Assembly: GCA_046563655.1 (NCBI GenBank)
Contig: CM102289.1
Coordinates: 6,820,001 to 6,884,000 of the forward strand
Direction: 5' to 3'
From: Yuukianura sp. NJ FZ-2021
Taxonomy: Eukaryota
DNA length: 64,000 nt
A model generated the notes under the pieces. The model did not search any database and was not told the origin of the DNA. It worked only from the letters and a program-made list of their open reading frames with translations. Position numbers and translations under genes: made by a program. The number at the start of each line of letters is the position of its first letter. Position 1 is the stretch's first letter. This document shows, in pieces, positions 2,311 to 62,343 of the stretch.

Positions 2311-2458
2311 GTTTGAACAATTGTTGGAAAATTGCTTTTGAAAAAGTCTGTTTTGAGTTTTGAAGAGTTAGTTGAAGTTTAGATTGTTTGAAATGTTTTG
2401 GTTTGAGTTTGTAGTTGGTGTGTTTGGTTTGCAGTAGTTGTAGAGAAGTAGCTGATGA

Positions 2459-3133: not shown

Positions 3134-3295
3134 TCATCAACTACTTCTTTACAACTACTGCAAACCAAACACACCAACTACAAACTCAAACCAAAACATT
3201 TCAAACAAGTATTCTAACAATCTAAACTTCAACCAACTCTTCAATCTACTCAAAACACAATTTTTCAAAAGCAATTTTCAAACAATTGTTCAAAG

Positions 3296-33030: not shown

Positions 33031-35040
33031 CTAAATATTTCTATAAAGTTTGAATAAATATTTTTTACAAACGTTGCGGCTAATTTCCTTGACTCTTTGA
33101 CCTAGGACTTCAATTGCAAATACTCCTATAGTTAAACTCGACATGCTTAACACAAATCCGAAGGCACCTAATAAACTACTGAGACCCAATGCTTTAATAC
33201 CCACTTCAGCATAGTCGTCATAAACTTCCAAAATTTTCTGACTCACAATTGACTTCTCTCCTTCTTTCAACCACTTTGAGCCGCCACTTTTCAATCGAAT
33301 GGCGTCATATTCAGTCCATTTATTTACAAGTCCGGAGGAAAAAGTCCGAAGTAAATACGTTTCAAATGGAGCCACTAGTGGAGAAAACCGGCGAAATAGC
33401 CATGAGGGATAAGCTGCCAAAAGTGATTCTTCCGACTTCAGCAGCAGCTTGTTTTGTTCCAGTGTACGGACAGTTGCATTACGGTAAACGACATAACGTC
33501 CATGAGAATCCCAGTCAAGACATGCGGATTTTTCTGTCAAGATGGCTCCTACAATGCAGTCAGTTGAAGAGTTGACTAATGTTGAGCGCCGAAGTATCGT
33601 TTTTGTAATTGGATCTTTGGATTCAACTGCTTCACGGTATGCAATTCCCCCATAGTAACGGAAAAACAGATTATAGTTCATGTCAATAAGATCCTTATGT
33701 GTAGTAGGTACTTCTGGAGGAATTGTAAATGATAGATAGTAGATTAAGCGTGACCTGTAGCCTGCCCCCAAAATCAAACAAACTAAAAACCACCCTACAA
33801 TTACTATTTTTGCATATCTGTTGCTCCACACTCTACCAGATACAGGTTGGTCCAACAGAATTGCCAAAATAGAACCGGCTACCCCGCCCAACTTTTTCAT
33901 TTTGTCCAAAGTTTGTGAATTTTGTTTAGTGAAAATCAATTCTGGTCCCAGAAGACAAACTGTACAGGCAAAACTGGTACAAATTCCTGTTAAGAACAGT
34001 AGAAGCCAAAGGTTGAAATGAAAAGCAAACAGCAAACGTTTCGAACTGTTTTCAGCCCGTGGAATTCGAATGAAGAATTGACGCAGAGTGGGTTCAAATG
34101 GAAATGCATTGTCGACAACAAATAATCGATCTGCATCTATCCCTCCGCCAAAAGCAAAATCAGCTCGTCGATTTACGACGTCTCCAACAGCGCCATGCCA
34201 TTCACCGTCTTTCTTGAACCCAGTGGCTCCGTTATTACTGGACGTCCATAATTTGAACGTAAAATTATAGCGCCGAGAAGCTTCATGTAGAACGTCATAG
34301 TAGAATCCCGATCCATCTAGGCGTATGTACAACGGAGCATTCGCACAGGAAATTTGAAACTGTTTGCCATTCAAGAGGAGCCATTTCGACTGTTTCAAAA
34401 TTTTTAAAGTTTCAGCCAAAATAGTGTTATGTAACTCTTGCACCGAAACTGGAATTTCATGAAACTGTTGAGAAAGTGAACTGTTTAGAGCATAAAAGCT
34501 TTTAAAGCGGAAATCTTCAAAAACAGTTTTTCGAAAATCATACGCTTTGTTTTCCCTCGAAATTACCAAAAACACATCTTTGTGTGACCTAATAACTTCC
34601 GTACTAAAAAGTTGATTCAAAATTTTAGTGTGAAGTGAAAGACTGTCAGTAAAGCCATTGATATTTGACTGTTGTCCAAGAAATATGAGTACAATTTGAC
34701 ACTGCGCAGTGTAGCGGATTTGAGTCAAGTATTTAGGTATGACCCAGACAATAGGTTCATGCGATTTGGTCGGAACAGAAACAGCTTCAAAAATGACAAC
34801 TGGGTTCAGTTGTCTATGCTTTCTGTAAAAGAATTCAAAATCTTGTTCCACTTTAGCAAGATTTGAAAAAATCGTTACCTGAGTGCTACATAATGAACTT
34901 TCACTGGTGGGATTCCACCGTCCAAAATTCTTTTGGTTAAAACCTTTTAACTGGTAATAAATATGCTTTTCATTGACATTACTATCCACTTGATTTAAAA
35001 GTGTTTGAAGCACAAGAACACAATTTAGAAAAGACTTCAT
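33031..35040 (-). CDS. Divergent ionotropic receptor (IR, iGluR-related chemoreceptor), intronless; probable ATG at 35040 (MKSFLNCVLVLQ...), alternative ATG at 35073
   Basis: Uninterrupted ~670-aa ORF. S1 lobe motif GEWHGAVGDVVNRRADFAFG, M1 (FHFNLWLLLFLTG), M3 (WFLVCLILGAGYRSRLIYYLS), S2 (SSGLVNKW) and M4 (LSSLLGAFGFVL). Single-exon structure is typical of divergent IRs. Confidence 0.88.
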   Translation of the reverse strand: MKSFLNCVLVLQTLLNQVDSNVNEKHIYYQLKGFNQKNFGRWNPTSESSLCSTQVTIFSNLAKVEQDFEFFYRKHRQLNPVVIFEAVSVPTKSHEPIVWVIPKYLTQIRYTAQCQIVLIFLGQQSNINGFTDSLSLHTKILNQLFSTEVIRSHKDVFLVISRENKAYDFRKTVFEDFRFKSFYALNSSLSQQFHEIPVSVQELHNTILAETLKILKQSKWLLLNGKQFQISCANAPLYIRLDGSGFYYDVLHEASRRYNFTFKLWTSSNNGATGFKKDGEWHGAVGDVVNRRADFAFGGGIDADRLFVVDNAFPFEPTLRQFFIRIPRAENSSKRLLFAFHFNLWLLLFLTGICTSFACTVCLLGPELIFTKQNSQTLDKMKKLGGVAGSILAILLDQPVSGRVWSNRYAKIVIVGWFLVCLILGAGYRSRLIYYLSFTIPPEVPTTHKDLIDMNYNLFFRYYGGIAYREAVESKDPITKTILRRSTLVNSSTDCIVGAILTEKSACLDWDSHGRYVVYRNATVRTLEQNKLLLKSEESLLAAYPSWLFRRFSPLVAPFETYLLRTFSSGLVNKWTEYDAIRLKSGGSKWLKEGEKSIVSQKILEVYDDYAEVGIKALGLSSLLGAFGFVLSMSSLTIGVFAIEVLGQRVKEISRNVCKKYLFKLYRNI

Positions 35041-35531
35041 CGCTGCAAGGAATGCAATTCCAAAGTGAGTCATTGACAGAAAGTGCATACCAATAACGTA
35101 AAGAAGTGTTAAATATTTTGCTTTTTAGTGCGATTAATCTGACACATATACGTGTGTCAATCATTTCGAAAGTAATTGAAATTATTCGATTATGAAATGG
35201 ACTGGAAATTTTTTTTGGTTAGGCTTTTTTGACATTTATTACTGGGATTACCATAAATAAAGTATAACAATTATACTAAAACATTACAACATAGCACAGC
35301 AGAATGAGCATTCAGTTTTTAGTGAAGTGTGAATTTTTTCAGATAAATGAGATAAACTTCCTTTGATATTCCAATATAAATATTGTATCGGTCTTACATT
35401 ATTCAAACTTAACTGGCAAGTTAGCCTTGGGCAACGCAATATTAAAATAAAACTTTAAAATATAGTTAATCAAGTCTGTATTGTTCAAAAAACAAACTGC
35501 CCTTTGTTCGTCAATGTCGATATTGCGGTAC

Positions 35532-36032
35532 TAGGGGTGGGAAAGTTCCGTTTCGTTTCGTTTCCCGATAGAAACAGAAACGGAACGGAACAGCGAATGC
35601 GGAAACAGAAACGGAACAGAAATTTTTAGCATGGAACGAAACGAAACAGAAACGGAACTGGAACGGAACTGGAACAAGAAATCCCTGCTGTGCATAGCAA
35701 ACGCTTACAAAAGTATCTCAGCCGTCAATTTCGAAAGTTTGTAAATGTACCAGTTCGCCATTTCAGTCGCTAACAATATCCTAAGCATACGGGAAATATG
35801 TTAAAAACTCAATTTTGTCGTTAGGTTTTACCACCGAAAATCCCGGAAGAGGAAGAAAATTCTTCCTTTCTGTTCCAGTTCCGTTTCTAACCTTTGGAAC
35901 AGGAACAGAAGCGGATGGAACAGAAACGAAACGGAACTGGATTTTCTGTTCCAAAAAATTATGGAACAGAAACGAAACGGAACTGGAACAGAGGCTGTTC
36001 CGTTTCTTGGAACTGGAACTTTCCCACCCCTA
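35532..36032. mobile_element. Non-autonomous hAT-superfamily element (MITE), 501 bp
   Basis: Perfect 18-bp TIRs TAGGGGTGGGAAAGTTCC / GGAACTTTCCCACCCCTA. Perfect 8-bp TSD TGCGGTAC at 35524-35531 and 36033-36040. Subterminal GGAAC/GAAAC repeats. Confidence 0.93.
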
Positions 36033-36250
36033 TGCGGTACCTTGCCCTACTGGTACCGCAACGTTAAAGAAATCGAAGGTCAATTGATATTACGTAAAGT
36101 TCAAACAGTGCCGGAAATTTTATTATGCTTTGTGCTATTGCGTTGTAGTGAAAATGGCATGTCAAAAAGGCTGGACGCTTCCCAAATCATTCTATTTGCA
36201 AACTTTACGTAACCACTTCTTGTTTTAAACAATTTTTTTAAACTTTGGAA

Positions 36251-36797
36251 ATGCAGGGCGTCATTTTCCCAACAGTTTTTGTTTTTTCGTTGTGCCTATT
36301 TTTGCGTTTGGCTGAAGGTGCATATTTCGAAATGAAGGAGGGCAGGGGTTCAGACACATTTGTGTTTGAATTACGAGATGAAGCTAAAATCAAACTCGCA
36401 CGAGATATAGTAGCTGGAAAGGAGAAGACGCAAACGCATGTGGCAGGACGAATTATCAAAAGAAAGGTACCCTACAATCCAAAATGGAGTTTTCATTTTG
36501 GTAAGTTGTATAAATAAAATGTTTTGTAGTACCAAATATTAATTGACAAAAATGAGCCAAAGCTGAAATTATTTCTTCCAGGAAATATCTAGAAAATTAA
36601 AAGTTACTTTGAGTTCATGATTATTTTGAAAAACAGATCCCGACACAATTCACTTTTTTGACATGGCCATTGAAGTTTGCGATGCAAGCTTGCCTTATGT
36701 TGAAGAGCACTTGGATGAAGCGGGTGGGCCATTCCTCCCAGGAAATCATTGGTGTCCATGGAGTTCCATTGTCGTCAAAGAAATTATTCCAAATTAA
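36251..36797 (+). CDS. Small secreted BP74-related / Dictyostelium CaM-BP15-like protein, copy 1; 2 exons (36251-36500, 36637-36797), 136 aa
   Basis: Signal peptide, then AYFEM...TFVFEL.D..KI..AR...[66 protein letters not shown] recognise this motif pattern from bacterial BP74-related proteins. Phase-1 GT-AG intron. Confidence 0.85.
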
Positions 36798-37225
36798 ATT
36801 AAAAAAAAAGGCAATCATGAGTAAGCAAAATTAGAGTTCCGGTGCCTAAACTTCTAGAAAGGCTTCTGAAAGGATCATCTTTTTGTTTAACTTCCAATTT
36901 TCCCACTATACTTTCCATCAATTTCAAATTATCACCACAATTTCAGGTATTGTTCACATTTGATTGACGGGTTGTCAATATTGACAACTCCTTTCGGAGG
37001 AATATATTTTGGCAGGATTTTTTGTCTGTGTTTCTGCAACAAGGAAATTTATAACTGCGGACTACATTTGTCTATAAATTAGAATGTCAACAAACCAGAC
37101 AAAACATTTTCACAGTTTGCACAATTCGTTACACCAAAACACAACTTCGCTTCCAACTTTATTTAATCCAGTTGTGTCTATTGCATTTAGCATAGTTGAT
37201 AGTAAGTTTACAAGAACTATTACAA

Positions 37226-37774
37226 ATGGGGCCAAAGGTCGCAGAACTGGTGCTATGTGTGCTGTTGTTTGACATTACTCGGGCAGCTTACTTTGCTATG
37301 GACGATGGATCTAGATCGCCAAAGACATTTGTCGTTGAAATTACTGACAACAGGAAAATAAACCACGCAAGATCCCTTATCAATGGAACAACAAAAAGTT
37401 CTCCACATATTATCGGCACCATTGTGAAACGCAAAACAAGTTACAACAAAAACTGGGGATTTCACATAGGTAAGTAAGTTTTAACATTTTAGCACATTGT
37501 TAAATAATATTACTACTAAACAAATTACTACTTCTGAACAAAGAAACTTTCAATTTTTAATTGTAACAAAATGGTTCCTTGGCTGTATAATTTTGTCTAC
37601 TTTTGTTTAGATCCACGGACGCTCGACTTTTTTGAAATAGCAATTGAAGTATGTGATGCATCGACGGACTACGTACAAGAACATTTGAGGGAGGCTTGCG
37701 GGGCCTTTCTTCCTGGTTGCACTTGGTGTCCCTGGGAATCTACACTTGTGAAAGAAATTCATATCAGGGCATAA
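37226..37774 (+). CDS. Small secreted BP74-related protein, copy 2; 2 exons (37226-37469, 37611-37774), 135 aa
   Basis: Signal peptide, then AYFAM...[65 protein letters not shown]. The intron is at the same position and phase as in copy 1. TATAAA at 37073. Confidence 0.85.
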
Positions 37775-38088
37775 TAGGGAGTTTGCGTTATAAACAAATT
37801 ACAGAACTTATAGAAATTATAGAAAGTATAGAATTTATAGAATTGAATTATGCGCTGACGTCACTCCTCAAAGTTTTCCAATTTATAGAATTTATAAGCA
37901 CGGTACATAAGTCCCATAAATGAGGAAATTTTGTGCCGTATCGTGACTGAAATCGACCAATCGCGAGAGCCGTAACAAAGAGGATTGGAATGAGTAGAAA
38001 GTAGCTTTCCAACTGTAGATGCAACCTTGTCTCTTAGGATTAGTACTGAATTGTAAGATCCAAAATAAAGTTGTTGCTGTGTTTTTTT

Positions 38089-39150
38089 TCAAACAATAAT
38101 GTTGTCTATGAGGCGAGTAGAATTCAACATGGCCGCTACTAGGATTACGAGTTGTTGACCCGAATCTTCGGAAGTCGGCAACTCCAGATTATGCTTTCTT
38201 ATTGTCAAATATTCCACTACGAAACCTAGCTTGGCCAAATGTTCAGTTCCATTGACTTCCAAAGCTTTAAAATTTGAATTTCCCGCTTCCACTTCATGTT
38301 TGATATTTGCTAAAGTTTTGTAGATTGAACTTGCCGCCATCCTTTCCTCGTCACTCAAGTAGTTGTTTCTGGAAGACATCGCTAGGCCAGACGGTTCTCT
38401 TTTAGTGGGAACTGAAATTACTTCCAGGCCCATATGAAGGTCAGCCACAATTTGTCGAATGACTTGGAGTTGTTGCCAGTCTTTTTCTCCAAAAACTACT
38501 GCGCATGGACGTGTCAAGTTGATCAAAATCGTCACAACGGTTGCCACGCCCTCAAAAAATCCAGGCCGATGCTCTCCTTCTAAAATCCTGCAACATTCAA
38601 TCCTAAATTGTAAAACCCTAAACCAAATGTAGCAAATGTGATTGGATTTTTTAGTACTGACTGATGAGAGTGTTAACTCTTACTTGCCAATTGGTCCAAC
38701 ATTTACGGTTGTAGCTATCGGATACTTGGGATAAATTTGCTGGATGGATTCTGGAGCAAATAAGTAGTGACATCCCACCTTCTCCAGTTTTTTTGAATCT
38801 TGTTCCAACGTTCTCGGGTATTTCCCAAAATCGTTATTCTGTGGATTTTTGGAAGTAAATTGAAGTGGGTTCACAAATATTGTGACCATGACTTTGTCTT
38901 TTGGAAACAAAGTGAGACCCTTGGTCACCAAATCCAAATGACCTTGATGTAGATTCCCCATTGTAGTAACGAGAACAAGCCGTGACCCTTGACCTTGGAG
39001 AGCTGATATTTCAGCTCTCAGAGCTTTGACAGTTGTGATGACCTTCATTTTTATGGAACAGGAGCACAGCGTTCTCAATCGCCTGACCAAACTAGACTGA
39101 CTGAATTCATGATCCAATAACAACCTTTGTACCGTATGAGCAGCAAGCAT
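38089..39150 (-). CDS. panC: Pantoate--beta-alanine ligase (pantothenate synthetase); 2 exons (39150 or 39048 to 38684, and 38587-38089), 321 or 287 aa
   Basis: TMGNLHQGH (HIGH-like motif), IFVNPLQF, YPRTLEQD, LEGEHRPGFFEGVATVV (spanning a 96-nt GT-AG intron at 38683-38588), FGEKDWQQ, REPSGLAMSSRN and RLIDN are all diagnostic PanC motifs. Confidence 0.96.
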
Positions 39151-39385
39151 AAGAATTTTCTCTGAAACTTCTTTTCTCACGATTAATGTTCATGTTGAAC
39201 CAAAGAAATTCCAAATGGAAAATCGGTTGCATTGGTTTTTAATAGTAAAAGGAAATTGCACAGTGCAGTTTAAAAAAAGTTCAATATTTTTTTTTATAAT
39301 TCACAGTAAATATATGGTCCATATGATATATTTCCACATACGACAATATTTGAGACAGTAGCTGGTTCGCCATACACTTCCAATG

Positions 39386-42300
39386 TTAAACATTTGTAGT
39401 GTGCTGACTGTGTGGTGATGGTTGACTTGCGGCAGCCGAAGCCGTTTGTACCGGACACAAACTTGCACGACGAATAGACTTCCTGCGTTTTCTATCATAA
39501 TCTGGATGAATACTCCAAAATTTATTTCCTCTCCCGAAATCATCTGCATCTTCAATTGTTTCTGGCAAATGTTGGCGCAGTGTCTCTGGTAAAAATGCTG
39601 CCAATATGGCTCCAATGAATGCAATCAAACTCATCACCAAATATGGAGCACCGGAGTAGATTTTTGCCTAAAAAATTGGCCATTGCAAAACCAAAATTTG
39701 GTGAATTCGATGAAAATTTGAGCTGCATTTGAGATTTTTTAACAACTGTTACCGTGTAAACAATGTATGGAGTCAAAAGGCCTAGAGATGATGAAATTGT
39801 TGAAGAAACGGCGCTTCCCGTAGCACGTAGTGGAGTGGGGAATAGTTCAGTAGCTTGAACAAGGACGACGTAAGTTGTTATCGTTACTGCAAACCTGAGA
39901 CAAAAGCAATTGTGTTAAATAATGCTTTCAAATAAGTTTTAAGAGTTAATTAATTAGCATACTTTGACAACATAATGCAGGTAATGATTAGTGATTCATT
40001 GTTTTGTGGACCTGCTCCTGCCACAAAACTCACGATAGCCATGAAGATACTAAACAGCACTGGCGTCCATCGTCGACCCAAAGAACCAATCATGAATCCC
40101 GCCGCAAAACTTGCAGGGAGTTCCACAATTGCGAGGATGAAGAAATTCAGAAACTGATTTCCACCCATATACGGTGCATTTAGAGTAATTACGTCATAGA
40201 TCATGATGTGAATTGCACTAACATAATAATAAAAATTAAAATTTTGCATTTTAAATTACATTTTAAGTTTCAGGTGATGGGAAAATAAAAATTACAAAAT
40301 TACCCTAAAACTGAAACGAGACAAGTGATCATAGTTAGCCGTTTTGTTGTAAAGAGCGTCCAGAATCCCATAACTTTTCTGTCTTTTTCTTTCTCCAAAT
40401 CCACTAACTTTTTTATAACTGCGACAAGTTCATCTTCAGTAATTTTATGCTGTGTGCCGTTGACTTTTGTAACTTGGCGCATAATTTTTGCGGCATCGTT
40501 GACTCTGCCCATAGTCACAAGCCAGCGAGGAGATTCCGGTAAAAATGGAAATATTAGAAGAATGAGAAATCCCTGCGATGTGACGCAAATGCCCAGAACA
40601 TACCAAAATCTTGAAAGATATGCAATTAATCTGAAAATAAGCATTATTTTTCTTTCATGTTAACCAAAAAAAAATTTCGTCAAAATTTGGAGAAATTACG
40701 GCACTGCAATCATTCCAAATACCCATGCTACATAGCCCATTGTATATGTCCAAGCTCTGTATTCTAAAAAAAAACTGTAAACTTTAGAAATGTTTAAACC
40801 AAATTTTTGAAAAAAAAACACACCATTGTCACAAAATTCAGCCATCAAAAGTGGCGGAAGGGAGTAGATCATTGCAAAACCGGAAGCGGCAATGAACGTA
40901 CAGCTCAAGTATAACCAGTAGATGTGTGTTACACAGTAACTGACTGATATAAACACCAAGTATAGTACTAGGGAAAACAGTAGCATTGGTTTCCGTCCAA
41001 ATCTGAAATGTCAAAAAATACCAGAACGTCTTTAGAAATTGCAACTTCAGTCATTTGCCAAAATGTTCGCCTTACATGTCCGCTAGTGGTCCAAAAACAA
41101 CGTTGCCAACGAATAGTCCACTTCCGGCTATGGTAAAAACTTTGGTGGGATAATAATCTTTTTTATAAGCGACATATGGAGTTAAAAGGTTGAGAGTTGA
41201 TGTAATTGCTGAAGAAACGGCGCTTCCCGTAGCGCGTAGTGGCGTAGGGAATAGTTCAGTAGCTTGAACATAGACGACGTAAGTTGTTATCGTTACTGCA
41301 AACCTGAGACAAAAGCAATTGAAGTAAATCCATATTTCAAATTTTTAAAAGTTAATTAATTAGCATACTTTGACAACATAATGCAGGTAATGATTAGTGA
41401 TTCATTGTTTTGTGGACCTGCTCCTGCCACAAAACTCACGATAGCCATGAAGATACTAAACAGTACTGGCGTCCATCGTCGACCCAAAGAACCAATCATG
41501 AATCCCGCCACAACACTTGCAGGGAGTTCCACAATGGCGAGGATGAAAAAATTCAGGAATTGGTTTCCACCCATATACGGTGTATTTAGAGTAATTATGT
41601 CATAGATCATGATACTAATTGCACTAAAATAGTAATCAAAATTAAAAATTTACATTTTTAAGCAAATCATTAAGCTTCACGTAATCGGAAAAAAAGTTAC
41701 CATAAAACTGAAATTAGGCAAGTGATCATAGTGAGCCGTTTTGTTGTAAATAGCGTCCAGAATCCCATAACTTTTCTGTCTTTTTCTTTCTCCAAGTCCA
41801 CTAACTTTTGTATGACTGCAACAAGTTCTTCGTCAGTAATTTTGTGTTGTGTGCCGTTGACTTTTGTAACTTGGCGCATAATTTTTGCGGCATCGTTGAC
41901 TCTGCCCATGGTCACAAGCCAGCGAGGAGATTCCGGTAAAAATGGAAATATCACAAGAATCAGAAATCCCGGCAATGTGACGCACATACTCAGAACATAC
42001 CAAGTTCTTGAAAGATACGCAATTAATCTGAAACAAGCATTGTTTTCAGTTATCTTAACAAAAAAAAAACGTCAAAATTTTGAAAAATTACGGTATTGTA
42101 GCCATTCCAAATACCCAAGCTACCCAGCCCATTGTATATGTCCAAGCTCTGTATCCTAAAAAAATTTAAAAACTACAGAAATGTTTGAAAACAATTTTTT
42201 TTAAAGAAAAACGCACCATTGTCACAAAATTCAGCCATCAGAAGTGGTGGCAGGGTGTAGACCATTGTAAACCCAGAAGCGGAAATGAACGTACAAGTCA

Positions 42301-43156
42301 AGTATAACCAGTAGATGTGTGTTACAAAGTAACTGATTGATATAGACATCAAATATAATACTAGGCAGAACAGCAGCATTGATTTGCGTCCAAACCTGAA
42401 ATTCCAAAAACTAAAATAAAATCTTCAGAAAATCAAAACGAAACTTCTTCATCCAATTTATATGCTCGTCTTACTTATCCGCTAGTGGTCCAAAAACAAT
42501 GCTGCCCACGAAAAACCCACTTCCGCCTATGGTAAAAACTTTGGTAGGATAAAAATCTTTTTCGCAAATCCAGAGATTGTCAGTAGCAATGGTCCGTTCA
42601 AAATCTTGTTTACTAAAAGTCCATCCATTTTGGCATGACATTGTCGCCGTCGTGTTGTAATCTTCAGTGAACGTAAAATTGTACATTGTACAGCTACTAA
42701 ATTTTTCAGTTGTATCCAAACCAGATTCCCTTCAATAAAAATTAAATTGCGGTAAAGCTTTATCTCGAAAAAATGAAGCTTCTAAACAGATTTGTAAAAA
42801 TTGATTTTACTTTGGAATGTTTTTGATTTTCCACTCTTCCAAGGCTGAACCTTCCAGAAGTTCTGGAGGACTGCAAAAGTGTTCTGGAATGAACATTGTA
42901 AAAATGCCGGTAAAAGACATTAGAGCCATTATAAACGAAAGTGGCATCAAAGCACCGTAGAGTACATATTTTTGGTAACGTCCATTTGACCCCACAAACT
43001 CCAAAAGGTCATCGAACTCCTCCATGTCTTCACCAACCTAATACATATTCGAATTAGAATATATTGTGACTTTTTTATATAAAATTTTACACATACTTTG
43101 TGGTTTTCTTTGTCCAGTTTCAGGTCGAATTCACCATTTTTATTTTTTTCACTCAT
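39386..43156 (-). CDS. SLC22 (organic cation transporter-like, MFS) double-length fusion gene; 14 exons, ~947 aa
   Basis: Exons 43156-43097, 43037-42811, 42729-42475, 42395-42217, 42155-42092, 42027-41701, 41623-41369, 41303-41076 (chimeric), 41002-40824, 40763-40700, 40630-40304, 40217-39963, 39894-39753 and 39667-39386. All introns are GT-AG and in frame. It has two sets of LAD.FGRK, PESPRWL and ELFPT motifs but a single LPET. Confidence 0.8.
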
Positions 43157-49005: not shown

Positions 49006-52000
49006 ATGGAACATCTTTCACCTTCTCCTACATTTCTAACAGGGTAAGCTTTCCCGATGGGAAAAAAGAAAAACCGAAAACAATAATGATGCGAAACTAT
49101 TTTAATACTTCCTTTTGTTGTAAGTTAACAATACTTTGTAATTGTAACGTTCCAAAAGTTTACTTGCGTGTAAGCAACTTTTTGTTCCTGAAATTAAAAT
49201 CAGTATCTAAACTGTGGTGCATGACACAGGCAGGATAACTTTGGGTATGAAAACGAAGTAAATCCAGAAGGAAGACGTTCTGCCACTTCCAATGGAGTGC
49301 CCAGACGTCCAAACGGCACTGAAGGAAGTAGAACTGGGACGCCGTCGAATTCAACCGGGGCAGCCACAGCAGTTATTAGTGACAGTGAAGATTCTGTTGA
49401 TTTTGTTTCAAATGGCAGCAGTGGTAAAGACGGAAAATACTTGCGGACAGCAATTCGAGTTGAAAGGGCCAAGAAGAAATTTGGAAATTTGACTGTTTTA
49501 AATGGACTTTATATGACAGTGCAAGAAGGCACAATGTAAGTTTTTATAATTTTTTTAAATGATAAACCTAGCCTAACCTTTGTTACTTTAAGAGAGTTTG
49601 TAGCTTTACTTGCATAAAAACTTAGTCATAAAACCATGCAAACTTGTTTGTGCATCTTATTTCAAGGTCACTTTTTTACTGGTTTGTTGCAGATATGGCT
49701 TATTGGGCTCAAGCGGTTGTGGAAAAACAACAATTCTGTCTGCCATTGTTGGCCTTCGGCGTCTAGATGAAGGAAGAATTTCAATTTTTGGTAAAACTCC
49801 GGGAACGCGAGAATGCGGCGTTCCTGGACGGCTTGTTGGATACATGCCCCAGGTAAAGTGTTTTTAGCGCATACGCAGATTTAAAAAAACGTTAAGAGTT
49901 TAAGAACTAGTTGGTGACGGTGGCGGTTCGTAATTTGCGAAAACTTTCTTTGAAAAAAATGGCTTCGTTTTTGTTTAATTTGCAAAAAAATTTCGTGCAT
50001 AAAGTTTGCTAATTTCTTTCAGGAAATTGCACTTAATGGTGAATTTACGATGCTGGAGGTTTGTCAGTACTTTGGGCGGTTGTATGGCATGGACATGGAA
50101 CGAGTCAACGAAAGAGTTGAGTACTTAGTAAATCTTCTGGATTTGAAAAAGTGCCGAGGACAACTGGGCAACTTCAGGTGAAAATTTATTAAAGCTGAAA
50201 CCAGTTTTCATTTCAATTTAAAATTCACAAAAAAAATGGAGCCAATCAATGGTTGCAAATTCTTCTAATTTTTGTTACTAATGCACTTTTTGATTTCTTT
50301 TAATTTTGAAATATTTGACTCTAATGAAGTGGTGGCCAAAAACGTCGAGTATCATTTTTGGTGGCTCTGCTGCATGAACCAGAAATTCTAATCCTTGACG
50401 AACCCACTGTCGGGGTGGATCCTATACTTCGTGCAAAGTAATTCCCAAAATTTATGAAGTATGCTTTCGTTATAAATTTTTCCTTGAAGACGTAATTGTT
50501 GTCACCATAATCTTTGTAGAATTTGGAACCACATTCGTGAACTCACTGATACTTATGGGACAACCGTGATATTAACAACGCACTACATCGAAGAAATGCG
50601 CCAAGCAGAAAGGGTAAAGTTCACTTTAGATTTTTTCGTATTTTTTTAAAACTTGTTTTCTAAAAATGTTGATTATCTTGTTCATAGGTTGGGATAATGA
50701 GGGGCGGCCATTTGATGGCAGAGGCGTCCCCCGAAACTTTGATGGCTTTCCACAAAGCAAAAATGCTTGAAGAAGTTGTGCTAAAATACTGTTTAACGGA
50801 TAAAGCCGAGGATAACCGAATGTTGAGGTCTGCTCCTCCTAGGAAAAACACAATTTCCTTTGAAAGTGAATACGGCGCGCGAAATTCTGAGGACACCGGA
50901 AAAGGACAACTGCAACAGCCGTCACAGGATGATCGTCGTGGACTTACTCTACCACCACCATACGTTCCTGCCAAACACAATGACACGGACCAGCTGAACA
51001 GACTTTGGGCATTAACGACAAAAAATGTCATTGTGCTTCTGCGAAACGTTGGGTAACAACTGTACAAAGAGAAACTTTGCTTCTTCTGCGTTTATACTTC
51101 TTTGAAGAAAATGTACAATTTTGTTTGTTGTTACAGATTTGTTTTGTTCTTGCTCGTTGTTCCGTCTGTGATTGTTTCGTTCTTCGCCATCGCTATTGGA
51201 AAAGAGCCGAAAAATCTTGGAATGGGCTTTGTTAGTGAAGAACTTTCTTCCCTTGATTTCTGCGACAAAGCTCCGCCAATATCTTGTGCACCAGAACATC
51301 TGAGTTGTGGCTACTTTGACACTTTAGCAAGCTTCAACGTGTTCGATCTGGTAAGATTCTAAAATTTAAGAAAGAAACATACTTTAGTTTATTTAGTTCA
51401 TGATTTTTTAATATTTTTAGCACAAATACAACACTGTAGGTGAAGCTATTGCGGATGTGGATAAACAAGTAGTGTGGGGCTATGTCCATTTTTCACAAAA
51501 CTATTCGCAGTACACCTTTAACCGAACATTGAGACACGACTTGTCGAATGCAACTATTGAAGGATCCAAAATTCGTGTTCGGTTGGACATGTCCAGTAAG
51601 ACAATATTTTGACCGTTGTAGGTTCTAAAAAAAATAACTTCAAAACTTGATATTTTTTGCTTTCACCAGCTATTCTAACGGGAGCTTTAATGAAAAAATT
51701 GATATACGATGCTTACCGTGCTTTCTCTGTGAAGTTTTTGACACTCTGTCAAGTGGAGTTGACAGGAAGAGATCTTCCAGTTGAAGTAACTAACAAATGC
51801 ACACTCAAAATTTAATAAATTTTTAATCTCATTCGCATAATAATTCATATTAATTCATATCTTTCCATTTTGCAGTTTGAAGAACCAATCTACGGCGAAG
51901 AAAATGGTACATTTACAGGCTTTATCATTCCTGGGCTCGTTGTTGGGTTTCTACCATTTTTTAGCTGCGTCAGTTGCATCCTGTCGTACATAATTGAGAA

Positions 52001-52663
52001 GAAGGATGGAATGATCGACAGGTCAAAGGTCGCAGGGGTCACTGCTTTTGATGTCATTCTGTCCCATGCCATTCCGCAGTTTGGAATTGCAATTAGCCAA
52101 ATTCTACTAACTTTTATCATCATGTATTTCGTTGACATACCATTAAACATTGGAAATCCGTTTCTCGCCTTCTCCCTCACTCTCTTCTGCACAGTTGTTG
52201 GAATGTGCATGGGTAGGTCAATAAATAAATCAAAATAAATACTAAAAAATGAATTCGAAATTTGCTTCCATTTAAACAGGCTTTGCAGCAGCAGAAATTT
52301 TTGATGAAGAGAAGAATGCCATGTTGTTCGCAATGGCAGCTTTGTTTCCTAGTTTCGTGCTCGCCGGAATATTTTGGCCACTTGAAAGTAAAACTTTTGC
52401 AACATATAATTTCTTATAGCGCATAAAAATTAAAATTGAGTTTGCTAAAACTTCTTAACACTTTGTTTTCAGGCATCCCACAGTCCATACGGTATGTCAG
52501 TTACTTTCTGCCAGCAACAATGCCAGGGAAAAGCATCCGCTCAATTTTATACCGCGGATGGGGACTGTCCAACTCTGCAGTTTACATGGGATTTGTTTCT
52601 CAAGTTGCCTTCATCTTATTCTACATTGCTTTGACATTTGTCGTCCATAAGATTAAGAAGTAA
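49006..52663 (+). CDS. ABC transporter subfamily H (ABCH) half transporter, copy 1; 13 exons
   Basis: NBD-then-TMD order. Walker [26 protein letters not shown], signature [11 protein letters not shown], Walker [14 protein letters not shown]-loop TTHYIEE. ABC2-type TMD (IYG...FIIPG, WPLE, RGWGL). First exon ATGGAACAT...ACAGG|gtaag. Confidence 0.92.
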
Positions 52664-54085
52664 CAACTAACAAAAAAAAATACCTCGGCAATACTTCAAA
52701 TTATGGAACAATTTCAGAACCATTTTTGGTGACATTCAATCAAGTGAACAATCGAAGTGAAAGGGAGGTTGTTCAATATATTTTATTTAGTAAAATACTG
52801 GAAGTCTGCGATATAAAATGTTAACTTACTCACAAAACTTTAGGCAAGTACTGAATGCGTTGTTCAAAAACAAAATAAATACTTAAACTGTATAATAACA
52901 AAGTTGGCAAAACTCAATTTGTTGGTAAATTAATTGTACGACTACAATTGATTAAATAGACAGTTACTACTGAAATTCAGCACATACAGAAAACATCATA
53001 TGAAAACAAAGAAACGTAAATTAATTAATTACTTTTAGCTATTTCAAAAACTAAAACTTGATCTTAATCTCGTATACTTAATTTGAACATGGCATGATGT
53101 ACAAAAAAAGGACATGTATTAACTATGCGAAAATGAAACGCGTTACTACGATGGTCCACGTGACAAAATTGGCGACTCTTGGAAAATAAAATAAAACGAA
53201 GCTTAAGAAACAAAGTCTACAAAAAGCTTACAATTTTGATTAAATATTGACAGTTGAATTGAATAGTAACTGTTGTCCGATGAGAATTAGGTTACTCATT
53301 AGGAATTTCATACGGGTTGAATAACACATTAGTGTAGCTTATATCCACATCAAAGTCGTAATACGCTCAGATTATGTTTTCGAAAGCAACAGTGGATAAA
53401 ATCTACATGGCCGATTTGCTTCCGCGATTTCATTTTTTTTAAAAGCGTAACGCTTGTAGCGTTCTGGGGTGGGAATTTTTTCGCGCGTGTTTTGTCCATG
53501 ATTTCCAACATGTGAAAGTCAAACTGTAGAGGCAATGGTTTTATTAACATGTCCATAGCCTTTTGAAGTTCGCGATTTTGAATTTTGTTTTCAATTTCGT
53601 CAACTCCCCAGCAGTTTCACGCGTAACTGATTCCAAGGATACCAAGGTCAGCGGCTAAAGTAACTTATGATTTAGGGAGGAGTAACTAGTTGTTCAAGAC
53701 TAAATATCGAAGCAATTTAAAATAATGAAAGGCTTTTTCTAATTTTAATTGATTATGGCATTAATTGAACATTCTCGCTCATCACCAGCTTTAGCTCCAC
53801 AAATTAACAAAATTTCGACTTGTTACTATAATCAGCTAAATACAAAAAAATATTTTTTGTATAGCATTTTCTTGTGCTCGTCGCACTCACAATCCTCTTT
53901 TGCGAGTTACAATTTATGACCATTCTCTGCAAAACCGGTTTTTCATTATAAATTGAAATAAAAAGAGAATAAGCTTAAGCAAAGGAAGGGTATAGTAATT
54001 AGTTACCTTAAAAGCAGCATGCAATAAGGTTTAGTTCTCAACATTATTGTGTGACTGGCTGGTCAGAAACGACAATTGGCACAAG

Positions 54086-57000
54086 ATGGAACATCTAACA
54101 CCGTCTCATACAATTCCGACAGGGTAAGTTTTCCCAATGGGAAAATTTAAAGGAAAACCGAAAACTATAATGACGGGAAATAATTTTAATAGTTCCTCCT
54201 TTTTGTTGTAAGATGACAAGGCCATGTAATTATAGCGTTCTAAGTTCGCGTTCTAAGTTTAGTTGCGTGTGTAGGATATATTTTATGAAATTGAGGTCAT
54301 TATCTAACTCTGTGGCTTGAAACAGGCATGAAAACTTTGGGTACGAAAATGAAGTGAATGCAGAAGGAAGAATTTCTGCCAATTCCAATGGAAAGCCCAG
54401 TCGTCCAGACGGAACTGACGGAAGTAGAACTGGAACGCCGTCGAGCTCAAACGGAGCAGCGACGGCAGTTATGAGTGACAGTGAAGATTCTGTTGGTCTT
54501 GTTTCAAATGGAGGCGGCAGTGGTAAAAGCGGAAAATACTTGCGGACAGCAATTCGCGTTGAAGGGGCCAAGCAGAAATTTGGAAACTTGACTGTTTTAA
54601 ATGGACTTTGTATGACAGTGCAAGAAGGCACAATGTAAGTTTTTATCATTTTTGAAATGATAAACCTACCCTAACCTTTTTAAACTTAAGAGAGTTTGTA
54701 GCTTTTATTGAGGAAAAGCTTAAAACTTTCTTGTCACATGAAGGCAAACTTGTTCCTTCATCTTATTTCAATGTCACTTTTTTACTGGTTTGTTGCAGTT
54801 ATGGCTTATTGGGCTCAAGCGGTTGTGGAAAAACAACAATTCTGTCGGCCATTGTTGGCCTTCGTCGTCTAGACGCAGGAAGAATTTCAATTTTTGGCAA
54901 AACTCCGGGAACTCGGGAATGCGGAGTTCCTGGACGGCTTGTGGGGTACATGCCCCAGGTAAAGTGTTTTTAGCGCATGCGCAGATTCAAGAGACTTAAT
55001 TTGTCGTTAAGGGTTGATGATTTTTTTGCTCATGCGCAGATTGAAAAGAGCTTTAGGCGTTAAGAGTTTATGGGTTAAATAGTTGGTGACGGTTCGTAAT
55101 TTGCGAAATCTTTCTTTGCGAAAAATGACTTTGTTTTTGTTTAATTTGCAAAAAATTTCTGTTCGTGAAAAGTTTGCTATTTCTTTCAGGAAATTGCACT
55201 TAATGGTGAATTTACGATGCTGGAGGTTTGTCAGTACTTTGGGCGGTTGTATGGTATGGACATGGAACGAGTTAGCGAAAGAGTTGAGTATTTAGTAAAT
55301 CTACTGGATTTGAGAAAGTGCCGAGGACAATTGGGCAACTTCAGGTAAAAATTTATTAAAGCTGAAACCAGTTTTCAATTAAAAATCCACAAAAAAATCG
55401 AGCCAATCAGTGGGTGTAAATTCTTTTAATTATTGTTACTAATGAACTTGTTGATTTCTTTTAATTTTGAAATATTTGACGCTAATGAAGTGGTGGCCAA
55501 AAGCGTCGAGCATCATTTTTGGTGGCTCTGCTGCATGAACCAGAAATTTTAATCCTTGACGAACCCACTGTCGGGGTGGATCCAATTCTTCGTGCAAAGT
55601 AATTTCCAAAATTTATGCAATGTTGTATTTTGTGTGCAAATTTTTTTCCAGAAGATGTAATATGTGTCACTATAATCTTTGTAGAATTTGGAATCACATT
55701 CGTGAACTCAGTGATAATTGTGGGACAACCGTGATATTAACTACCCACTACATCGAAGAAATGCGCCAAGCAGAGAGGGTAAAGTCGACTTGAAATTTTT
55801 TCTTACTTTTTTAAAACTTGTTTCTAAAAATGAAAATGTTGATTATCATGTCCAAAGGTTGGCATAATGAGGGGTGGCCATTTGATGGCAGAGGCGTCAC
55901 CCGAAAGTTTATTGGCTTTCCACAAAGCCAAAATGCTTGAAGAAGTTGTGCTAAAATACTGTTTAACGGATAAAGCCGAAGATAGCCGAATGACGAAGTC
56001 TCCTCCACAAAAAAACACAATTTCCTTTGAAAATGAATATGTGATGCGAAAATCTGAAAACGGAAATGTGCAACAGACTTCATGGGATGGTCGTCACGAA
56101 AACTCTCCATACGTTTCCCCCAAACACAATGACACGGACCAGCTAAACAGACTTTGGGCACTGACTACCAAAAATGTCATTGTGCTTTTGCGCAACGTTG
56201 GGTAACAACTGTACAAAGAGAAACTTCGCTTCTTCTGAGTTTACTTCTTTGAAGAAAATGTACAATTTTGTTTGTTGTTACAGATTTCTTTTGTTCTTAC
56301 TCGTCGTGCCGTCTGTGATTGTTGCGTTTTTTGCAATCGCCATTGGAAAAACGCCAGAAAATCTTGGACTGGGATTCGTTAGTGAAGAACTTTCTTCGCT
56401 TGATTTCTGCGACAAAGCTCCGCCAATGTCTTGTGCACCCGAGCACCTTAGTTGTGGCTACTTTGACATTTTGGCGAGTTTTAACGTCTTCGATCTGGTA
56501 ACATTCTTAAATTTAAAAAAAACAAGCCATTTTTTACAACTTATTCAACTTTTCTTTTGCTTTTTAGCACAAATACAAGACTGTAGGCGAGGCTATTGCG
56601 GATGTGGATAAACAAATAGTATGGGGCTATGTCCATTTTTCACCAAACTATTCGCAGTACACTTTTAACCGAACATTGAGACACGACTTGTCGAATGCAA
56701 CTATTGAAGGATCCAAAATTCGTGTTCGGTTGGACATGTCAAGTAAGACAACATTTTAACCGTTTTGTTCTAGAAAAAAAAACTTAAAAATTTGACATTT
56801 CTGATTTTCAAACAGCAATTACGACCGGAACTATAATGAAAAAATTGATATATGATGCTTACCGAGCTTTCTCTTCGAAGTTTCTCACACTTTGTCAGGT
56901 GGATTTGACAGGAAGAGATCTTCCAGTTGAGGTAATTAACGAAGGAATATTTCCAATTTAAACCTGTCGTAAAGTTTTTCAACACAGTCGTATTCTGTAT

Positions 57001-58036
57001 GTCACAAAATATTTTATACAGTCGTTTCGGTTGCTAGCGCCTGAAAAAAAGTGGCTTGAACCCACATCTCCGTGCCAAAATAAATAGAAAAAATAATTTT
57101 TATATGAAATTCTTAACACAAATCAAGTTTAGGATGTTATATAAGATCCTTGAATTCGACGGCAGGTTGGGAAGGTTCCTTCTAAATATGCACACATTTA
57201 TACATAATAATACATTTTATTAATCTCAATTTATATACATTTTTCGTTTCCTAGTTTGAACAACCAATCTACGGCGAAGAAAATGGAAAATTCACCAACT
57301 TCGTCATTCCTGGGATCGTTGTTGGGTTTCTACCATTTTTTAGCTGCGTCAGTTGCATCCTGTCGTACATAATTGAGAAGAAGGATGGAATGATCGACAG
57401 GTCAAAGGTCGCAGGGGTCACTGCTTTTGATGTCATTCTGTCCCATGCCATTCCGCAGCTAGGAATTGCCATTTCACAAATTCTACTAACATTTATCATC
57501 ATGTATTTCCTTAACGTACCGCTGGACATCGGGAATCCGTTTCTCGCCTTCTTACTGACTTTCTTCTGCACTGTTGTTGGAATGTGCATGGGTAAAAGTC
57601 AATTCTCAAAAAATAATACATTAGTAATACAAACTAAGTATTAAAAATGAAATCGAGCTTCCTTTTGAACAGGCTTTGCAGCAGCAGAAATTTTTGATGA
57701 AGAGAAGAACGCTATGTTATTTGCAATGGCAGCTTTGTTTCCAAGTTTTCTCCTTTCCGGACTTCTTTGGCCACTTGAAAGTAACATTTTTAACATAATT
57801 TATCGTACAACGTAAATAATGTTACATCTGAAAATTTTTTTCCAGGCGTCCCACGCACGCTACGGTATGTGAGTTACTTTCTGCCCGCAACAATGCCAGG
57901 AGAAAGTATCCGTGCAATTATGTTCCGCGGATGGGGACTGTCCTACTTTGCAGTTTACATGGGATTTGTCTCTCAAGTGGCCTTCGTCATGTTCTTTATT
58001 GCTTTGACATTTGCCGTCCATAAGATTAGGAAGTAA
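54086..58036 (+). CDS. ABCH half transporter, copy 2; 13 exons
   Basis: Same motifs and exon structure as copy 1. ATG at 54086, TAA at 58034-58036. Confidence 0.92.
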
Positions 58037-59045
58037 GAGCTAACTTATAAAAAATAAGTACCTACGCTTCGCTTCAAATTATGAAATAATTTCAGAACCA
58101 ATGTTTGGTAACATTGAATCAAGAGATAGCATCATCGCAGCGAAAATTTGGTTGTATAATAATACTTTTAATTTTAGTAAAACAATGCATGGAAGTCTGC
58201 GATATTAATGTTAACTAAGTCACAAAGCTTTAAACAAGAACTGAACTAATAATAATAATACAAATGGAAATGAATAATATTTACTATACAACGCATCATA
58301 AACTTGACTTGAATTTGCTTATAATTAACTGTAATGGTACAATTATTGCTCGTATAATAATAATACAATAATACGTCTGTAATAATATACAGTTTACTAC
58401 TGAGATTCGGCCCATAAGCTGTAATTATGTTTATTCTCAAACATACTGCGAGTATAGTAAGAAACAAGGCTTACGGAAAATTTTTGTTGATGGCGGGAAA
58501 CTTGTTCCAGTTTTTCAGACTTTACTTTCAACGGGAGGACAAGACACAAGAAGCATTACTTGAATTACTTTTTATAATCTCATACCTAATTTCATCTTGA
58601 GTTTTGTTATTGTAAGCCAGGTATTCATGCGAAGTCTGTTTAGTAAGCAAAACTTTGCTCCCATTCCTGCGTGGTGACATTTATCCTTTTACCTCCACCG
58701 TTGACCTTTGACATTTTTGTTTGCAGAACAGCCGTGTAGCATGCTTCACATATCGTTCGGAATAGGAGTGCAATTTCTGAAGGTGCCACTCGAAAAATCA
58801 ATATCAAGAACTGCACAGTAAAAAAAAATTGAACAATAGTTGCGTGTGTGCGATTTTTTCCTCAAACGGAGGTCATTATCTAAACTATTGCGTGATACGG
58901 GCATGCTAACTTTGGGTATGAAAATGAACTGAATCCAGAAGGAAGAATTTCTGCCAATTCCAATGGAATACCCAGTCGTCCAGACGGCACTGACGGAAGT
59001 AGAACTGGAACGCCGTCGAGCTCAAACGGAGCAGCGACGGCAGTT

Positions 59046-62000
59046 ATGAGTGACAGTGAAGATTCTGTTGGTCTTGTTTCAAATGGTGGCGGCAGTAGTG
59101 TTAAAGACGGAAAATACTTGCGGACAGCAATTCGAGTTGAAGGGGCCAAGAAGAAATTTGGAAAATTGACTGTTTTAAATGAACTTTGTATGACAGTTCA
59201 AGAAGGCACAATGTAAGTTTTGATCATTTTTTGAAATGATAAATATACCCTAACCTTTGCTAATTTAAGAGCGTTTGTTGCTTTCCTTGCCGTAAAGACC
59301 GTAAAACAAAATGAGACATTTTTGTGCCTTTATTTCAATGTCATTTTTACTGGTTTTTTACAGTTATGGCTTATTGGGCTCAAGCGGTTGTGGGAAAACA
59401 ACAATTCTGTCTGCCATTGTTGGCCTTCGTCGTCTAGATGAAGGAAGAATTTCAATTTTTGGTAAAACTCCGGGAACGCGAGAATGCGGCGTTCCTGGAC
59501 GGCTTGTGGGGTACATGCCCCAGGTAAAGTGTTTTAGCGCATGCGTAGATTCAAGCGACTTAATTTGGCGTTAAGGGTTTATGGGCTAATGTTGGTGGCG
59601 GTTTAGAATTTGGAAGTCTTTGTTCTACCAAAATGCCTTTGTTTTTGCTTAATTTTTCAGAAATTTCTGCGAATTTCAAACATTTGCATTTCGTTTCAGG
59701 AAGTTGCACTCAACGGTGAATTTACGATGCTGGAAGTTTGTCAGTACTTTGGGCGGTTATATGGTATGGACAAGGCAAGAGTCAATAAAAGAGTTGAGTA
59801 TTTAGTAAATCTTCTGGATTTGAAAGAATGCCGAGGACAACTGGGCAACTTCAGGTGAAAATTTTTTTAAACCAAAACCCAGTTGTCAATTTTAAAATTC
59901 ACAAAAAATGAAAGCACGCAATAGTTGAAAATATTTCCATTTTTGGTACTAATGAACTTGTTTATGTCTTTTAATTATGAAATATTTGACACTAATGAAA
60001 TGAAGTGGTGGCCAAAAGCGTCGAACGTCATTTTTAGTGGCTCTGCTGCATGAACCAGAAATTTTAATTCTTGACGAACCCACTGTCGGGGTGGATCCAA
60101 TTCTTCGTGCAAAGTAATTTCCAAAATTTATGCAATTTCTTACTTTCTGTGCAAATTTTTCGCGGAAAATGTAATTTTTGTCACCCTAATTTTTGTAGAA
60201 TTTGGAATCACATTCGTGAACTCACTGATAATTGTGGGACAACCGTCATTTTGACAACCCACTACATCGAAGAAATGCGCCAAGCAGAGAGGGTAAAGTT
60301 CACTTGAGATATTTTCGTGCTTTTTAAAACTTGTCTTCTAAAAATGAAATCTATCATGCTTACAGGTTGGGATAATGAGGGGTGGCCATTTGATGGCTGA
60401 GGCGTCACCTGAAAGTTTATTGGCTTTCCACAAAGCCAAAATGCTTGAAGAAGTTGTGCTAAAATACTGTTTAACGGATAAAGCCGAGGATTCCGTAATG
60501 ATGAACTCCCCTCCGCCTAAAAATACAATTTCCTTTGAAATTGGATATGTCGTGCGAAAATCTGAGGACGCCGGAAACGGAAATCTTCGACCACCGTTAC
60601 TGGATGGTCGTTGCGAAAACTCTCCATACGTTTCCGCCAAACACAATGACACGAACCAGCTGAACAGACTGTGGGCACTGACTACAAAAAATGTCATCGT
60701 GCTTTTGCGCAACGTTGGGTAAAATCTGTACAAAGAGAAATTTTTGATTACTTGCTTAAAGAAAATGTTTTTATTTGTTACAGATTTCTTTTGTTCTTAC
60801 TCGTCGTGCCGTCAGTAATTCTTTTGTTCTTTCCATTCGCAATTGGAAACACGCCGAAAAATCTTGGACTGGGCTTCGTTAGTGAAGAACTTTCTTCGCC
60901 TGATTTCTGCGACAAAGCTCCGCCAATATCTTGTGCACCGAAACACCTTAGTTGTGGCTACTTTGAAATCTTGGCGAGTTTTAACGTCTTCGATCTGGTA
61001 ACATTTTTAAATTTTCAAAAAAAAAAACTAGTCATTTTTTCTGTCAACTTATTTAACTTTTCTTTTACTTTTTAGCACAATTACAACACTGTAGGTGAAG
61101 CTATTGCGGCTGTGGATAGACAAATAGTGTGGGGCTATGTCCATTTTTCACAAAACTATTCGCAGTACACGTTTAATCGAACATTGGGAAACGATTTGTG
61201 TAATGCAACAATTGAGGGATCCAAGATTCGTGTTCGGTTGGACATGTCCAGTAAGCAACATTTTGACCGTTATGTGTATGTTTTAGGGAAAAAAAACTTC
61301 AAGACTTTACTTTCTTTTTGTTTTCTTTCATTTTTCACTTTTTTTTTTACTTTCAAACAGCAATTACGACGGGAGCTTTAATCAAAAAATTGATATTTGA
61401 TGCTTACGGAGCTTTCTCTTTGAAGTTTCTTTCACTTTGTCAAGTTGATTTGACAGGAAGAGAACTTCCAGTCGAAGTAACTAAAAATACAAGTACACAC
61501 AAAATATAGGTAATAAATTGTAAACCTCAATTCATATATATTTTCCATTTTGTAGTTTGAACAACCAATCTACGGCGAAGAAAATGGAAAATTCACCAAC
61601 TTTATCATTCCTGGCGTAGAGGTTGGGTTTCTCCCATTTTTTAGTTGCGTCAGTTGCATCCTGGCGTACATAATTGAGAAGAAGGATGGCATGATCGACA
61701 GGTCAAAGGTCGCAGGGGTCACTGCTTTTGATGTCATTCTGTCCCATGCTATTCCGCAGTTTGGAATTGCCATTACGCAAATTATAATAACTTTCATTAT
61801 CATGTATTTTGCTGGCATACCGATGGACATCGGGAATCCGTTTCTCGCCTTCTTGCTGACTCTCTTCTGCACTGTTGTTGGAATTTGCATGGGTAAGTCA
61901 ATTTTGAAAGAATGATTAGTAATTGAAAATAAATATTTTTGAATCCGAGCTTCCTTTTGAACAGGCTTTGCAGCAGCAGAAATTTTTGATGAAGAGAAGA

Positions 62001-62343
62001 ACGCTATGTTATTTGCAATGGCAGCTTTGTTTCCAAGTTTTCTGCTTTCCGGACTTCTTTGGCCACTTGAAAGTAACATTCTTAACATAACTTCTTAACG
62101 CTTAAAAATTGTAATTCAGTTTACGTTTTACATGTTAACAATTTTTCCCTAGGCGTCCCATACCCACTACGGTATGTCAGTTACTTTCTGCCTGCAACAA
62201 TGCCAGGAGAAAGCATCCGTGCAATTCTGTTCCGCGGATGGGGACTGTCCTACTTTGCAGTTTACATGGGATTTGTCTCTCAAGTGGCCTTCGTCATGTT
62301 CTTTATTGCTTTGACATTTGCCGTCCATAAGATTAGGAAGTAG
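59046..62343 (+). CDS. ABCH half transporter, copy 3; lacks exon 1, so N-terminally truncated (putative start MSDSED) or a young pseudogene
   Basis: Exons 2-13 are present with open frames and intact motifs. The exon-2 acceptor reads atacgg at 58895-58900 instead of acag, and no ATGGAACAT exon or promoter block occurs between 58036 and 58840. Confidence 0.7.

Follow-up and report, generated by a model that had tools for sequence, protein, structure and literature searches.

Animals are textbook vitamin B5 auxotrophs. The known animal recipients of panC, the gene for pantoate--beta-alanine ligase, feed on plants or parasitise them, and the transfers have been interpreted as a way of adapting to a poor diet. 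Wherever panC has been captured, the lineage concerned has gained partial freedom from B5 dependence. Transferred panC genes are documented for tetranychid mites, Aculops, Bemisia, the mealybug Ferrisia virgata and cyst nematodes (PMC7738191, PMC5157087, PMC9582021), in agreement with the spider mites, whiteflies and plant-parasitic nematodes cited in the original prediction for the locus described here. The panB and panC genes of tetranychid mites and Aculops are interpreted there as enabling de novo B5 synthesis (PMC7738191), and the whitefly may borrow the ilvC of its symbiont (PMC5157087). The pantoate used by cyst nematodes is described as coming from their host plants, and the function of the cyst nematode gene Hs-panc was shown by knock-down and complementation-type work (PMC9582021). 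The literature searched on oribatids, springtails/Collembola, Folsomia, Orchesella and Acariformes reported no transferred panC; supplementary tables of horizontal transfers may list one.

The gene considered here lies in the window, the 64-kb stretch of DNA that was analysed. It is held with considerable confidence to be a PanC gene captured from a gammaproteobacterium, probably of Nevskiales type, and to reside today in the nuclear genome of an arthropod. Following the transfer it would have gained one phase-2 spliceosomal intron and taken on the base composition of the host, with the catalytic core kept nearly whole. The spliced mRNA would encode a protein of about 287-321 aa that, as in the rest of the family, would use ATP to activate (R)-pantoate to pantoyl-adenylate and condense beta-alanine with it, yielding pantothenate (vitamin B5). 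With that step the animal would finish B5 synthesis from pantoate, which it would owe to other acquired genes elsewhere in its genome, to microbes or to the diet.

Layout and family identity of the predicted gene

The gene occupies exactly the interval first proposed for it, 38089..39150, and is encoded on the minus strand, with both exons matching the PanC family. The features of the gene and its 5' flank are listed below.

39151-39385, minus strand: 5' spacer of 235 nt, between the last exon of the transporter (39386-39667) and the first panC ATG
39150 (or 39048)-38089, minus strand: two-exon gene for PanC, pantoate--beta-alanine ligase
39049-39150, minus strand: optional in-frame N-terminal extension MLAAHTVQRLLLDHEFSQSSLVRRLRTLCSCSIK of 34 codons, beginning at the first ATG of the open frame
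38684-39048, minus strand: core of exon 1 from Met35 (MKVITTV...), with VTTMGNLHQGH (HIGH-type motif) and FVNPLQF; matched in Pfam and PDB
38588-38683, minus strand: predicted spliceosomal intron of 96 nt, GT..AG, phase 2, GC 0.33; from the sequence
38092-38587, minus strand: exon 2, ILEGEHRPGFF...RLIDNIIV, with the GEKDWQQ and MSSRN motifs and the C-terminal domain; matched in Pfam, NCBIfam and PDB
38091-38089, minus strand: stop codon TGA; sequence read directly

The intron, which was part of the original prediction, begins with GTAAGA and ends with TTGCAG, and it is present in the DNA contigs of runs X1, X2, X3 and X5. Its retention would bring in an in-frame stop after ten codons, and its predicted removal leaves an ungapped alignment to bacterial PanC in which a split Lys codon is completed by the first base of exon 2. 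The computed spliced CDS of 966 nt encodes 321 aa, or 287 aa if translation begins at the second of the two candidate starts, which are the ATG at 39150 and the in-frame ATG at 39048 where PanC homology begins. The 34-codon extension is basic, hydroxyl-rich and without PanC homology; as speculation from composition alone, this leader could be an organelle-targeting peptide. The promoter and 5'UTR of the predicted gene must lie within the 235-nt spacer, which contains an A/T-rich TATA-like run. An upstream out-of-frame ATG is located 42 nt before the first panC ATG, and a canonical AATAAA was not found within 260 nt past the stop codon.

The Pfam profile PF02569 was matched by exon 1 with an E value of 7.4e-30 (residues 36-151 on profile positions 1-104 of 268) and by exon 2 with an E value of 6.6e-50 (profile positions 111-268 of 268); because these matches cover positions 1-104 and 111-268, nothing is missing at the exon junction. 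The NCBIfam panC model TIGR00018 scored 93.1 bits for exon 1 and 157.4 bits for exon 2, a rough sum of 250.5 for the separately scored halves, where the equivalog cut-off for a whole protein is 212.75 bits. Among structures in the PDB, exon 2 matched 3uk2 at 8.8e-38 and 1iho at 8.4e-35, and exon 1 matched 3inn, 3mue and 1iho at about 1e-20. As predicted from the sequence, both halves match the PanC family far beyond chance.

Conservation was assessed with 319 distinct full-length bacterial PanC homologues from the searches, aligned with the spliced window protein. The prediction of a complete PanC with its catalytic motifs holds, with PF02569 spanned by the two exons and the consensus kept at 47 of the 48 columns with 95% or more conservation in the bacterial set. 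The H-x-G-H of the HIGH-type motif is retained as M64 G65 N L H68 Q G70 H71, in columns that are 97-100% conserved in the 319 homologues. The pantoate- and ATP-binding residues N94 and Q97 (in FVNPLQF) and K191, D192, Q194 and Q195 (in GEKDWQQ) are also kept, as are S227, S228, R229 and N230 of MSSRN. By motif position, the counterparts of these residues are pocket residues of the Mycobacterium tuberculosis enzyme, and Pro38 of that enzyme, the equivalent of Thr62 in the window, is listed among the active-site pocket residues (PMC11317409). Thr62, which replaces the Pro of PTMG, is the sole departure among the 48 near-invariant columns, so the VTTMG reported earlier in place of VPTMG was correctly read. 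Across 464 motif-bearing homologues this position is P in 459, A in four, M in one and T in none; the proline is nearly always present in these sequences, but it is not strictly a defining residue of the family. Thr62 is, from the alignment, an unusual change inside the predicted pocket, though natural non-proline variants exist. With Thr62 placed in the pocket and T found in 0 of 464 homologues, PanC activity or specificity could therefore be altered.

This substitution speaks in favour of an integrated copy that has decayed or been re-purposed, being either silent or engaged in ligating another acid or amine. Such a reading would also suit the 64-kb window in that it contains no panB and no panB remnant. 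Against it, the frame is open across 321 codons, 47 of the 48 near-invariant columns are kept, and A and M occur naturally at the position of the proline. The lone panC has a precedent in the cyst nematodes, which are described as using panC alone with pantoate supplied by the host (PMC9582021). Decay or re-purposing is given only a slight chance on this evidence, and a domesticated and active panC is a plausible reading of the sequence.

The locus in the arthropod chromosome

Four groups of host-type genes were identified around panC.

33031-35124: ionotropic-glutamate-receptor-like gene, single exon, 697 aa, with a Pfam Lig_chan-Glu_bd match
39386 to about 46900, minus strand as panC: MFS/SLC22-like tandem array, directly upstream of panC
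49225-62340, plus strand: tandem array of three ABC half transporters, all with an ABC_tran and an ABC-2 membrane part
63083-64000: DUF229 gene

The nearest Atlas clusters of the receptor-like gene are 100% Eukaryota, with Arthropoda the commonest, and a search with this gene gave three matches of 34-37% identity among 7647 candidates. At the level of gene family, the receptor-like, MFS/SLC22-like, ABC-2 and DUF229 genes bear out the arthropod-type neighbourhood that had been proposed. The panC CDS has a GC content of 0.42 and a GC3 of 0.40; GC3 is 0.33-0.48 in nine neighbouring host exons and 0.39-0.84 in seven of the nearest bacterial genes.

Physical linkage was followed in Logan contigs of the public DNA runs X1, X2, X3 and X5. 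A single 1640-nt contig of run X2 covers 37950-39578, which includes the whole of panC and 190 nt of the last exon of the transporter. The second X2 contig covers 33036-37977 and extends from the receptor-like gene to the 3' flank of panC. The word depths of the two contigs, which meet in a high-copy repeat, are alike (79.4 and 80.6), an agreement that carries little weight. Run X5, which belongs to another study and carries another organism label, provides three contigs at 37882-38382, 38408-39135 (across the intron) and 39194-39716. These differ from the window by about 3-5%, with the gene order kept and the intron included. In the contigs of this second organism (B) there are 9-10 gap letters, which limits what they show about the intactness of its copy.

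An assembly artefact, in which bacterial contaminant reads were joined to arthropod DNA, would account for the bacterial-type sequence of the gene, and the best DNA runs lend it some room: X1-X4 may be the window's own assembly sample, so X5 alone counts as independent. Against this stand the intron and the host-like GC3, the contigs of equal depth that bridge panC and both flanks, and the recurrence of the locus under a second study and organism label. Because contigs join panC to its flanks, X5 repeats the locus and the composition is host-like, contamination or chimerism is very unlikely, and the probability left to an artefact is close to nil. The original argument against contamination, which named linkage to the flanks as a check, is thereby upheld by the X2 contigs and by the intron-bearing locus of X5. 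Integration of panC in an arthropod chromosome is supported.

Several other features of the window were recorded. A high-copy repeat is located just downstream of panC at 37676-38009, where the summed contig word depth in X1 is about 4100, compared with about 250 in neighbouring bins. This region contains short 'tatagaa'-type repeats and TGACGTCA palindromes and has many loose ends and joints, and the contigs of X1, X2, X3 and X5 all break within it. The contigs of the same four runs skip about 509 bp at 35523-36033, which resembles either an insertion/deletion polymorphism or an insert, rich in repeats, that is specific to the assembled haplotype; the open frames in this segment encode low-complexity N-G-T/E-repeats. 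Upstream of panC, contigs join 39716 to 41164 (1447 nt skipped, with 35 other letters between; X1, X2 and X5) and 41154 to 42554 (1399 nt skipped; X2 and X3), which suggests copy-number variation or collapse in the MFS/SLC22-like array at 39716-42554.

Between the receptor-like gene and panC are two tandem two-exon genes, 36242-36797 (+) and 37196-37774 (+), that are convergent with panC and encode small proteins with hydrophobic N-termini. Both match PF23621, the BP74 N-terminal domain, at 9.6e-20 and 1.1e-18 respectively. No match for either was found in PDB or NCBIfam, and the literature on BP74 offered no explanation. At the start of the window, two genes of the subtilisin family (Peptidase_S8), each with two exons, form an inverted duplicate at 835-2367 (-) and 3218-4771 (+), and their proteins are nearly identical; the top-scoring PDB and NCBIfam entries for them are microbial subtilases, with modest scores only. 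The ABC half transporters at 49225-62340 have many short introns, and a Ser/Gly/Asn-rich N-terminal exon stands before each copy. Neither a second panC nor a panB remnant was found in the 64-kb window (E <=1) beyond the gene itself, and Rfam gave no match in the window.

Bacterial relatives and two metagenome proteins

Word-index searches were conducted with exon 2, and the best 120 of 2153 near-length matches and the best 120 of 410 longer matches were considered. The best of these were 55-57% identical, and the named ones were Gammaproteobacteria, including Stagnimonas and Panacagrimonas MAGs. The highest bacterial identity to exon 2 among the listed matches was 57%, a distance that also speaks against contaminant bacterial reads. 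No named animal PanC was present among the listed 120 and 120 matches, in which the sole animal label was an isopod record marked 'UNVERIFIED_CONTAM' at 49%. An exhaustive phmmer search of 1.84 billion representatives returned 9191 matches, 78 of them at 1e-30 or better, and the best 150, like the two listings of 120 word-index matches, were of bacterial type. Only two phmmer matches exceeded 51% identity, namely P0123 (about 58-59%) and P0170 (about 54-55%). The Atlas search with exon 2 found bacterial PF02569 clusters only. Scans of metagenome loci (best 80 of 595 stretches) and prokaryote genomes (best 80 of 600 stretches) likewise found bacterial loci only, at no more than 50% and 51% identity respectively.

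A careful maximum-likelihood tree was constructed from 60 rows and 287 columns under LG+C20+F+G4; plant, fungal and published animal PanC sequences were not among the rows. Support of 100/99 unites the window protein with P0123 and P0170 on a long stem (0.69). The sister group of this trio (81/91) comprises 17 rows, Panacagrimonas and Stagnimonas among them, within a wider gammaproteobacterial group, and the Pseudomonas rows are found in another clade than the window PanC. The support of 81/91 makes the predicted sister relation to Nevskiales-type Gammaproteobacteria a moderate one. Because the window protein, P0123 and P0170 are K/N/I/Y/F-rich, a composition control was added in the form of a tree with ten K/N/I/Y/F-rich bacterial PanCs. 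The SH-aLRT values in this control tree were 98 for the trio and 93 for the trio with the Nevskiales-type rows, and composition attraction was rejected as the cause of the trio. The phylogeny that had been called for thus nests the window PanC in Gammaproteobacteria among bacterial rows, with the control tree in agreement. Together with the bacterial-type best matches and the linkage to host DNA, this placement among bacterial references sustains the horizontal acquisition originally put forward.

The host could instead be an acariform mite or a hemipteran, with its panC a diverged orthologue of one of the described transfers (Tetranychidae, Aculops lycopersici, Ferrisia virgata or Bemisia tabaci). 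Several arthropod lineages are described as already carrying a transferred panC (PMC7738191), and the trees comprised rows without known animal PanC, both of which leave space for this reading. The searches weigh against it, with the 49% isopod record as the only animal label among the listed matches and P0123 and P0170 as the only phmmer matches above 51%. The whitefly gene is reported as a Pseudomonas-allied fusion (PMC5157087), whereas the window gene has no panB and falls in another clade than Pseudomonas. The Aculops genome, at 32.5-Mb, is described as streamlined (PMC7738191), which fits poorly with the many short introns of the window. An orthologue of a described transfer is considered unlikely. 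The window panC is probably the result of a separate transfer event, given that the searches found no close named animal PanC, that the gene is not fused to panB and that it groups away from Pseudomonas.

P0123 is the representative of a 90% cluster with P0394 and P0395, all from metagenome contigs of 949-1455 nt and annotated only as 'pantoate--beta-alanine ligase'. It begins with 16 residues unlike PanC and continues as ILEGEYRPGFF... from exactly the first residue of the window exon 2. The residue before ILEGE is Ser, which fits an AG acceptor and one exon base, weakly in that Ser has other codons; when read in the same way, the window has Arg from AGG before ILEGE. In a screen of 392 proteins against a bacterial reference, seven start their match at the position of the window exon-2 boundary. 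Among these, P0123, P0394 and P0395 alone have an unrelated leader and AT-type composition, and the other four resemble bacterial fragments or frame errors. From its protein sequence, P0123 looks like an exon ORF that starts at the intron site of the window panC. P0170 is a protein of 137 aa that begins at GEKDW with M in place of the conserved F, and could represent either an exon ORF or a fragment at a contig edge.

P0123 and P0170 are about 54-59% identical to the window exon 2, and each keeps the near-invariant columns that it covers with one exception: L273 is replaced by I in P0123, and F188 by M, the first residue, in P0170. The retention of these columns despite the divergence argues for long purifying selection, and it counts against the decayed or re-purposed copy discussed above. 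Should P0123 and P0170 turn out to be exons of animal genes that have this intron too, the transfer would be old and common to lineages that are now 54-58% identical; a common intron, if true, would date such an old transfer. The window panC may be part of an older animal family that is absent from the literature searched. In its fullest form, this would consist of one Nevskiales-like transfer into the ancestor of a broad small-arthropod group, followed by a phase-2 intron still common to distant members, Thr62 and possibly an organelle-targeting leader. This fuller history is put forward tentatively, as a possibility that is doubted rather than favoured. If it were true, Thr62 and the leader would suggest that the last step of B5 synthesis has been tuned or relocated and is fed with microbial pantoate.

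Comparison with known systems

Among bacterial genes, the Nevskiales-type panC (the MAG proteins P0133 of Stagnimonas and P0167 of Panacagrimonas, and locus L081) has the same family and domain order as the window gene. Exon 2 of the window gene is 51-57% identical to its bacterial counterparts, for L081 the full-length identity is 45%, and window and bacterial proteins alike have the GEKD motif in its GEKDWQQ form. Unlike these genes, the window panC has an intron, a possible N-terminal extension of 34 aa and Thr for the PTMG proline, and it has no adjacent panB. Its GC3 of 0.40 is shifted toward AT, compared with 0.62 in L081. The solved PanC enzymes (E. coli 1iho; 3uk2; the M. tuberculosis 1mop series) are in the range of 35-50% identity to the window protein and align with it at all catalytic motifs, whereas the pocket residue equivalent to Pro38 is Thr62 in the window.

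Among animal genes, those of tetranychid mites and Aculops lycopersici resemble the window gene in that a bacterial pantothenate gene is placed beside host genes, but these mites are described as carrying both panB and panC (PMC7738191), whereas the window has panC alone in 64 kb. The gene of Bemisia tabaci is, like the window panC, of bacterial origin with introns gained after transfer; it is described as a panB-panC fusion allied with Pseudomonas (PMC5157087), whereas the window panC is unfused and apart from the Pseudomonas rows. Hs-panc of the cyst nematode is similar in being panC only, intron-bearing and flanked by host genes. It differs in that it belongs to a different phylum, with the transfer assigned to the ancestor of Hoplolaimina (PMC9582021).

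The capture of panC by animals is already documented, and the window case is not a new principle; its value is comparative. What seems to be one more separate case would broaden the known range, and its relatives are seen only as metagenome fragments. Set beside the mite, whitefly and nematode genes, the window panC would serve as another natural replicate for the gain of introns and host codon usage in bacterial genes.
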